Part shown: positions 33,473 through 33,726 of the stretch, piece after piece
How positions within the stretch are numbered: the first letter of the stretch is position 1
How the letters are laid out: the number at the start of each line of letters is the position of its first letter
DNA from: an uncultured Gammaproteobacteria bacterium
GTDB taxonomy: Bacteria; Patescibacteriota; Patescibacteriia; S139-126
Assembly: GCA_964620905.1 (NCBI GenBank)
Contig: CAZUKA010000001.1
Location: 519,646-583,645 of the forward strand
DNA: 64,000 nucleotides
Reading direction: 5' to 3'
Notes under the pieces: model-generated
The model's database searches: none
What the model was told of the DNA's origin: nothing
Seen by the model: the letters and a program-made list of their open reading frames with translations, nothing else
Position numbers and translations under genes: made by a program

Positions 33473-33726
33473 GTAATCAGAATATTGGATTAAGAATCTA
33501 GAATATTGAATTTAGAATTATTTTTTTAATAATCTCTTATTTCTATCGGCATGCTCCCGCTTACGCGAGATTATTCTGTCCTGAGCAGCATTGAATGTCC
33601 ACCGGACATTCAATGTCATCTCGCTGCGTCCCGACCTTGTCGGGACTTGCTCATTCCTGCCCGTTCGAATCCCAACATCCGCACTCACCATTCCTAAATT
33701 CGTGACTAACGTCACAAATTTAGGAA

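Follow-up and report, generated by a model that had tools for sequence, protein, structure and literature searches.

A strain-specific insert behind a tRNA-Ser(UGA) gene, probably a solo and partly decayed RtT-like element

The DNA analysed herein, referred to as the window, is a stretch of 64 kb (64,000 nucleotides). It carries two tRNA-Ser genes with a 254-nt spacer between them: tRNA-Ser(GGA) at 33382-33472, identified by ARAGORN and Rfam, and tRNA-Ser(UGA), TGA in the DNA, at 33727-33814, identified by ARAGORN and by the Rfam tRNA model (63.7 bits). Since both genes lie on the minus strand, the order of transcription is the UGA tRNA, the spacer and the GGA tRNA. Thus, tRNA-Ser(UGA), which has an encoded CCA, is the first gene of the operon and tRNA-Ser(GGA) is the second; the CCA end of the latter forms part of a trailer hairpin. 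A preliminary description of the sequence, silent on the strand, had reported two near-identical tRNA-Ser genes with identical arms. ARAGORN and Rfam bore out the pair, and its members are identical in the first 19 nt and the last 29 nt. The spacer had also been called GC-rich. This is true of 33541-33726 (50% GC), but not of 33473-33540 (17.6% GC), the window mean being 36.6%.

We folded the 254-nt spacer on both strands. The minus strand reached -87.4 kcal/mol, compared with -57.9 ± 4.4 kcal/mol for dinucleotide shuffles (z = -6.75), and none of 200 shuffles was as good; the plus-strand fold gave a z of -6.1. In the direction of transcription, the spacer opens with hairpin H1 (33691-33726, minus strand), UUCCUAAAUUUGUGAC-GUUA-GUCACGAAUUUAGGAA, which has 16 bp including one U.G pair. 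H1 grows to 19 bp when the tRNA CCA (33727-33729) pairs with the UGG at 33688-33690. The next part, the A' segment UGGUGAGUGCGGAUGUUGGGAUUCGAAC (33663-33690, minus strand), resembles the reverse complement of a tRNA 3' end from the T-loop to the CCA, but it matches neither tRNA-Ser nor any other tRNA of the window. The 5' box GGGAUUCGAACGGGCAGGAA (33654-33673, minus strand) is conserved, and is the 20-mer that retrieved the family described below (metagenome scan, alignment A1). Within this box lies GGGCAG, the 5' strand of helix P2 (33657-33662, minus strand).

The middle of the spacer, likewise read on the minus strand, consists of two hairpins and two junctions. Hairpin P2a (33628-33646), GUCCCGAC-AAG-GUCGGGAC, has 8 bp, and other units of the family carry a variable hairpin at this place. 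It is followed by the junction GCAGCGAGAUGA (33616-33627), which in the alignment carries the GCGAG motif of the family, and by hairpin P2b (33589-33615), CAUUGAAUGUCC-GGU-GGACAUUCAAUG, whose 12 bp are perfect and which is homologous to GAAUGC/GCAUUC elsewhere. The 3' strand of P2, CUGCUC, and the junction AGGACAGAAUAA then occupy 33571-33588; the strand forms one G.U pair with GGGCAG, and the family consensus of the junction is NGGACAAGGA. H1, P2a and P2b had all been listed in the preliminary description and are present, H1 with a U.G pair only when read on the minus strand. A further pairing, gcgagat with atctcgc, was proposed there as well. The two segments are complementary, but the pairing is missing from both the minimum-energy fold and the family consensus, because atctcgc sits in a local hairpin with a GUAA loop. 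This is hairpin P3 (33555-33570, minus strand), UCUCGC-GUAA-GCGGGA, which has a GNRA loop and one U.G pair and is variable or optional in the family.

The element ends in a decayed 3' box, GCAUGCCGAUAGAAAUAAGAG (33534-33554, minus strand), which aligns to the family box GACGCGAAAAUCCCUCC. The family box is a direct copy of the tRNA T-loop and the 3' strand of the T-stem. In the window copy its C residues are lost and the closing helix P1 is gone; the prediction offers a substitute closing helix, UGGU..GUGC with GCAU-GCCG. Pairing of the A' segment with AAUCCAAUAUUC, a stretch just upstream of tRNA-Ser(GGA), was considered as a closing helix and rejected, because this stretch is native spacer common to the relatives. 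We also rejected, by inspection, a plus-strand reading as an inverted tRNA pseudogene or T-arm, since its T-stem does not pair. Outside the element, the native AT-rich spacer (33473-33533, minus strand) contains TTCTAGA/TTCTAAA repeats and weak promoter-like sites.

Within 33250-33950, the only terminator-like site lies at 33868-33888, upstream of the operon; none was found between the tRNA-Ser genes. No U tract follows any spacer hairpin, H1 included, which argues against the earlier proposal that the tRNA-adjacent hairpin is a terminator. At gathering thresholds, Rfam 15 found only tRNAs in the window, and relaxing the threshold to E<=10 added tRNA-driven or noise matches. The Rfam models for self-cleaving ribozymes, group I/II introns, tmRNA, SRP, 6S and RNase P RNA gave sub-threshold noise only. 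The suggestion of a ribozyme or an intron remnant was not upheld, with no Rfam match at E<=10, and by eye the hammerhead, twister and hairpin ribozyme cores do not fit. Exact look-ups of two spurious ORFs that overlap the element returned no record. A repeat search, blastn and the covariance model R1 (below) found no second copy of the element in the 64-kb window, so that MITE-like dispersal was not seen there.

Homologues of the PEP synthase place the organism of the window among the Patescibacteria, and they supplied relatives at graded levels of identity. The synteny groES-groEL-MamF-PEP synthase-small ORF is kept in the relatives. The locus with an identical 73-aa flanking protein (L004) has tRNA-Ser(GGA), 103 nt and tRNA-Ser(TGA). 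Of two loci with a 90% identical PEP synthase, one (L156) has GGA, 85 nt and TGA, and the other (L157) has TGA, 74 nt and GGA. The locus at 85% identity (L159) has GGA, 14 nt and TGA, and the one at 79% (L161) has a single tRNA-Ser(GGA). The element is missing in all five of these related Patescibacteria loci, four of which have the tRNA-Ser pair with spacers of 14-103 nt, and R1 found no match in L156-L162 or L004.

L157 is an empty site: it has the tRNA order of the window and lacks everything that matches 33541-33726, including H1, which is therefore part of the insert. Its 74-nt spacer has the AT-rich 3' part of the window spacer, including an 18-nt block, TTCAATATTCTAGATTCT. The AT-rich part is homologous to the spacers of L004, L156 and L157; against the L004 spacer, its local alignment score was 55.5, compared with 37.7 ± 4.7 for shuffles. 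In the window, an ordinary AT-rich spacer has thus received an insertion of about 186 nt (33541-33726), which abuts the CCA of tRNA-Ser(UGA) and is strain-specific. The insert consists of H1 (16-19 bp) and one family unit of about 150 nt. The preliminary description had treated the 254 nt as a single unit, which does not hold for the last ~68 nt, an ordinary native spacer.

The arrangement in the window rests on one contig, and other assemblies break inside the first tRNA, which is consistent with the branch point expected from the repeated tRNA ends. A Logan contig has the same junction from the promoter to tRNA(UGA) and stops where the branch point is expected, and the right junction of the insert lies in unique sequence that is continuous with the native spacer. 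Among the relatives, the order of the tRNA-Ser genes is polymorphic, and L007 carries foreign DNA 3' of tRNA-Ser(GGA). Therefore, the locus recombines readily, and this recombination most likely runs through the identical tRNA ends.

We scanned metagenomes with the 20-mer GGGATTCGAACGGGCAGGAA (minus strand, 33654-33673). It matched eight metagenome loci, five of which hold full or reduced units. In four of the eight, the 20-mer lies shortly downstream of a same-strand tRNA: tRNA-Gln in L131 and L137, tRNA-Asp in L133 and tRNA-Lys in L134. A further locus, L139, was found by a protein search with a spurious ORF of the L137 array; it is the ortholog of the dnaX-tRNA-Gln locus of L137, in a related organism. 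Units are found downstream of a tRNA and on the tRNA strand in L131, L133, L134, L137 and L139. They form arrays of five units in L137, three in L139 and two in L131, while the window has a single one. In the two dnaX-tRNA-Gln arrays, both the number of units and the order of the unit types differ. The family comprises about six independent loci, those outside the window being metagenome contigs with putative host taxa.

The full units, which come from contigs unrelated to the window, align to the window element over its whole length. The order of parts is the 5' box, P2, the GCGAG motif, one or two variable hairpins, P2b, the junction, an optional hairpin and the 3' box. P2 is GGGCAG/CUGCCC or, in other units, CGGUGG/CCACCG; P2b is GAAUGC/GCAUUC, with CUGGCC/GGCCAG in L133. 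The covariance model R1, built from eight units, scored 94.8 bits on the window unit and 109-156 bits on the other units. Rfam scans of L130-L137 and of the L137 and L139 arrays gave nothing beyond tRNA and noise. Blastn searches of phage and plasmid collections with the window element and an L137 unit found no match, and IMG/VR returned chance or coding matches only, with R1 silent on the candidates. A search with a tRNA-Ser 5' pattern returned at least 120 loci in many phyla, the pattern being too general, and there was no unit among the matches listed. Searches of the literature that covered the sequence motifs and tRNA-linked elements in Patescibacteria returned nothing. These results establish the insert as H1 plus one unit of a conserved, covarying multi-hairpin family without an Rfam match.

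The preliminary description had named two findings that would count against a structured RNA, namely no conservation of the spacer in related genomes and no Rfam hit. Both describe the syntenic loci literally. Yet they are misleading, as other organisms conserve the element behind other tRNAs.

In L133, the last 24 nt of tRNA-Asp (G53 to CCA) have their exact reverse complement in the 24 nt that precede GGGCAG in the adjacent unit. In each full unit of L137 and L139, the equivalent 21 nt exactly complement the 3' end of tRNA-Gln, except for one mismatch in the fourth L137 unit. The unit 3' box pairs with this inverted tRNA copy to give the closing helix P1, and the units have inverted termini that equal the 3' end of the host tRNA. 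At its end, the two-unit block of L131 repeats 17 nt of the 3' end of tRNA-Gln in direct orientation, 16/17 identical (AATCCCTCATCCCCAAC vs AATCCCTCATTCCCAAC). In the best-preserved units, the predicted closing helix is clearly made of an inverted and a direct copy of the neighbouring tRNA 3' end. It is clear in L131, L133, L137 and L139. The window copy retains a recognisable inverted segment, which fits no local tRNA, and its 3' strand is decayed.

The tRNA is separated from the inverted copy by a loop or a long hairpin, and H1 of the window has exactly that position. The same arrangement of tRNA CCA, long hairpin and UGG is also filled in L133 and L131. Strong hairpins separate the tRNA from the unit in L131, L133 and L134, and those of L131 and L134 are terminator-like. 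Obligatory co-transcription of unit and tRNA is weakened by these hairpins.

We assessed the fold in a 12-unit alignment (A2). Consensus partners paired in 92.8% of cells, compared with 83.6% in shuffled alignments and 37-49% with slid partners, in an alignment that is fitted to the model. In the same fitted alignment, 12 of 25 pairs were changed on both sides. For P2b, all seven consensus pairs showed changes on both sides across units, and the alternative P2 and P2b sequences lie next to invariant flanks, which anchor them. The ratio of G.U pairs to A.C mismatches was 15:4 on the tRNA strand, and the three G.U pairs of the window copy are all on the minus strand. The pairing, the changes on both sides and the excess of G.U argue for a fold of the tRNA-sense strand, and the G.U bias fits an RNA transcribed from it. 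The structured RNA that had been suggested for this spacer is supported for the GC-rich part, with its conserved family, covarying stems and G.U bias, but not for the whole 254 nt as one unit.

Repeats behind the tRNA-Tyr of E. coli have been known since 1981 and the rtT RNA since 1991. To our knowledge, RtT has been regarded as a peculiarity of enterobacteria. The E. coli tyrT operon has 3.1 tandem repeats of 178 bp after tRNA-Tyr and a further copy between tyrT and tyrV, and the Rfam model RF00391 finds four copies there with 133-137 bits. The RF00391 consensus has a closing helix GGGGAAGG/CCUUCCC. Of its two strands, the 3' one is part of a direct copy of the 3' end of tRNA-Tyr (AAUCCUUCCCCCACCACCA) and the 5' one is the inverted complement. 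The RtT helix is followed by AUGAGAAC, which is also found in two metagenome units, the remaining units having AUUCGAAC (an inverted T-loop). The E. coli RtT units contain a GCGAG-containing motif, and RtT and the L139 units alike have the 14-mer GGAGCGAAGCGACG just before the 3' closing strand. One of the repeat units is rttR (Bosl & Kersten 1991, as cited in PMC3318445); it is cut from the tyrT transcript and has been proposed to take part in the stringent response.

RtT and the new units thus have several properties in common. Both measure about 120-210 nt, lie directly downstream of a same-strand tRNA and are often in tandem. Both end in a copy of the tRNA 3' part from the T-loop onwards, which forms a closing helix with an inverted complement upstream. 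Both have a decayed inverted T-loop (AUGAGAAC/AUUCGAAC), a GCGAG-rich hairpin interior and GGAGCGAAGCGACG. The window element has the same placement, starting at the base that follows the CCA of tRNA-Ser(UGA) on the same strand. However, the tRNA complement is 16-24 nt in the new units and about 10 nt in RtT, the three-way core of P2 and P2b is outside the RtT model, and the putative hosts are Patescibacteria and other uncultivated bacteria instead of enterobacteria. In contrast to RtT, the window copy is single and lacks a CCA-like 3' end, and its closing helix is lost.

Searches between the two groups gave little. RF00391, with a gathering score of 45 bits, had no match on 33200-34000 (E<=10), the L137 array (E<=5) or the L139 array (E<=10), and R1 had no match on the E. 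coli locus at E<=10. Nhmmer profiles of the new family and RtT gave no match in one direction and a best E of 0.91 in the other. In pairwise comparisons with RtT, the best pair was a short L139 unit and an E. coli copy (z = 5.2); the window gave z = 3.3 and the other units 0.1-3.2, and only the short units were significant. Given the silence of RF00391, R1 and nhmmer and z values of 0.1-5.2, we call the element RtT-like in design and keep it out of RF00391. By analogy of architecture, we infer that the window element is the same kind of object as the RtT repeats of the E. coli tyrT operon. The earlier suggestion of an ncRNA or an elaborate processing element came close, because the nearest known analogue, the rtT RNA of E. 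coli, is a product processed from a tRNA operon.

The probable explanation of the window spacer, in our judgement, is a composite of the native AT-rich spacer and a solo, partly decayed RtT-like element behind tRNA-Ser(UGA). The copy would probably be transcribed as an internal spacer of the tRNA-Ser operon; with no terminator predicted between the tRNA-Ser genes, co-transcription with the tRNAs is the probable case. It may then be released when tRNA-Ser(UGA) is cut at its 3' end and tRNA-Ser(GGA) at its 5' end, as with rtT RNA in E. coli, and the tRNA strand is predicted to fold into H1 and a three-way junction. The element probably arrived either by recombination via the identical tRNA-Ser ends or by some element-specific mechanism. 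The window copy looks like a relic: sister strains do without it, its closing helix is gone and it has no match to tRNA-Ser. We infer that the element is dispensable for this lineage.

We also considered whether a miniature mobile DNA element, or its scar, makes up the insert, integrated at the T-loop or 3' end of a tRNA gene, moved by a recombinase in trans, with hairpins that act as DNA or ssDNA in the manner of a folded attachment site. As the main account of the locus, this is somewhat unlikely. It would accommodate an insert present in one strain, missing in close relatives and of foreign base composition, and the 17-nt repeat of L131 is a classic attL/attR signature. The unit borders lie inside the T-loop-derived TTCGAA/CGAA, and the number and order of units vary between related genomes. 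Elsewhere in the window, a 12.8-kb island at tRNA-Asn encodes a large serine recombinase and repeats 21 nt of the tRNA 3' end; the foreign DNA after tRNA-Ser(GGA) in L007 fits such traffic as well. However, no integrase or recombinase adjoins any unit, the tRNA-Ser 3' end is not repeated after the window copy, and searches of phage, plasmid and IMG/VR collections found no copies. Simple integration leaves the inverted tRNA copy unexplained, and the excess of G.U pairs and the compensatory changes speak for selection that acts on a single folded strand. The T-loop borders, the L131 direct repeat, the variable arrays and the foreign composition suggest mobility of the units, albeit with no associated recombinase. 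Mobile DNA is compatible with the RtT-like element that we prefer if the element is both mobile and RNA-coding.

Known systems differ from the units in specific ways. Integrative elements that target tRNA genes have in common with them the site at the tRNA 3' end, the tRNA copies at the borders, the strain-specific presence and the tandem accretion, and the tRNA-Asn island of the window is a true example of them. The units, in contrast, are 120-210 nt long and gene-free, have no adjacent integrase, and possess an inverted tRNA copy and a covarying core. 3'ETS-leuZ of E. coli is a stable RNA derived from a tRNA-operon spacer or trailer by tRNA processing; RNAs of this type are short, are not known to be repeated or to copy a tRNA 3' end, and act by pairing with small RNAs. 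The units of TIGR arrays are far shorter. Permuted tmRNA (RF04321) has the same order of T-arm, acceptor 3' strand, loop, acceptor 5' strand, GGAUUCGA(A)C and the start of a helix, but the upstream partner of the units is a complete ordinary tRNA and they have no tag reading frame. A tmRNA reading was rejected, with scores of 13-18 bits (window 13.4) against a gathering score of 47 bits and a negative ARAGORN result.

A broader proposal is that RtT and the new units form one widespread class of mobile tRNA-tail cassettes, whose 5' segment guides or primes homing behind the matched tRNA and whose arrays move between strains and phyla. We regard this as an unlikely, though far-reaching, extension. 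If true, the E. coli RtT would be one decayed example of a mobile RNA-directed system.

The narrower idea that the 5' tRNA-complementary segment is a guide or primer-binding sequence, with the rest as a scaffold, and steers a protein, be it a recombinase, a nuclease or a reverse transcriptase, to the tRNA or its gene, is still less probable as the explanation of this locus. It would explain the homing of units behind a matched tRNA. In two arrays, the exact complementarity of 21-24 nt is kept apart from the one mismatched L137 unit, whereas the direct copies diverge beyond 9 nt. Matching segments exist for different tRNAs (Asp, Gln and, in E. coli, Tyr). The segment starts with UGG opposite the CCA in L133 and the window, and in L137 and L139 it is preceded by GG, although those tRNA genes have no encoded CCA. 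The layout is also that of a 5' guide followed by a structured scaffold. No candidate partner protein, however, recurs near the units, no guide or bridge RNA family of Rfam matches, and the window segment fits no tRNA of the window. The perfect upkeep of the complement, seen in very few loci, suggests a guide-like or primer-like role of this segment.

Finally, ordinary tRNA processing or terminator hairpins, chance GC-rich palindromes or an assembly chimera are highly improbable: the lack of an Rfam hit and of conservation at syntenic loci fits ordinary hairpins, and repeated tRNA ends that flank the locus and break assemblies fit a chimera, but the ordinary-hairpin reading is largely refuted by the family hits (R1 score, whole-length alignment to units of unrelated contigs) and by hairpins that lack a U tract, and both the unique right junction and the Logan contig speak against a chimera.

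For the RtT-like element that we favour, the window alone carries modest biological weight, because it has a single, partly eroded copy that sister strains can dispense with. The locus nevertheless exemplifies a type of element that Rfam-based annotation misses, and it indicates that tRNA-tRNA spacers can carry cargo. An RtT-style architecture that occurs beyond E. coli and is tuned to other tRNAs (Gln, Asp) would turn a single-species curiosity into a comparative problem, with the questions of whether the complement tracks the host tRNA, whether the units move and which proteins co-occur with them.

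The family of structured units found just downstream of tRNA genes was followed into the metagenome loci recovered with its conserved 20-mer, the 5' box. We found one reduced unit (22.6 bits) and a second, truncated copy in locus L135. In two AT-rich metagenome contigs (L135, positions 400-950, and L136, positions 2600-2900; the sequence of L132 is the same as that of L136), a terminator was followed about 20 nt further on by the 5' box. The terminator was preceded by a conserved, GC-richer non-coding stretch, for which the Rfam search returned no match at E<=0.01. This stretch is possibly another unannotated stable RNA.

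The GC-rich contig L133 carries its unit behind a tRNA-Asp. In its region 2105-6728, the tRNA is preceded by a PEP synthase that is 58% identical to that of the window and followed by a second ORF with a PEP-utilizer domain. The gene order is similar to that of the window, by relatedness or by chance.

A different tRNA gene of the window, tRNA-Asn, is the integration site of a genomic island of about 12.8 kb (7886-20744). The island encodes a large serine recombinase on the minus strand (7920-9560), together with a DUF4365 protein, a DNA methylase (11961-13493) and a ResIII helicase (13498-15753). Its boundary is marked by a 21-nt direct repeat (20724-20744) of the 3' end of tRNA-Asn. Additional partial copies were present further downstream, at 22017-22061 and 22579-22599, and suggest tandem accretion.

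A TCTAGAAT/TTTAGAAT-type motif occurred at three sites in the window, namely the native AT-rich tRNA spacer (33480-33520), the region upstream of groES (37161-37193) and an intergenic region near tRNA-Arg (61881-61930), as well as in the spacers of relatives. The motif may serve as a promoter element or as the binding site of a regulator.

The 3' trailer of tRNA-Ser(GGA) in the window forms a hairpin (GCCACAC...GUGUGGC, 33358-33385) that includes the CCA end. In the relatives, a similar trailer sequence was located behind the last tRNA-Ser, whichever gene this was; in L157, it followed tRNA-Ser(TGA). In the related locus L161 (PEP synthase 79% identical; 6440-6720), the two arms of a 12-bp inverted repeat, CCCCCACTAAGC / GCTTAGTGGGGG, enclose the sole tRNA-Ser(GGA) and extend its acceptor stem. 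Partial copies of its anticodon arm lie upstream, and partial copies of its 3' end lie downstream.

The order of the tRNA-Ser genes was polymorphic among close relatives at the loci syntenic to window 33300-33900. The window and L157 have the order TGA-GGA, and L004, L156 and L159 have GGA-TGA. In L007, a further relative, the promoter is duplicated and tRNA-Ser(GGA) is followed by foreign DNA with a DNA methylase. Recombination at the tRNA-Ser locus seems to be frequent and to be driven by the identical tRNA ends.
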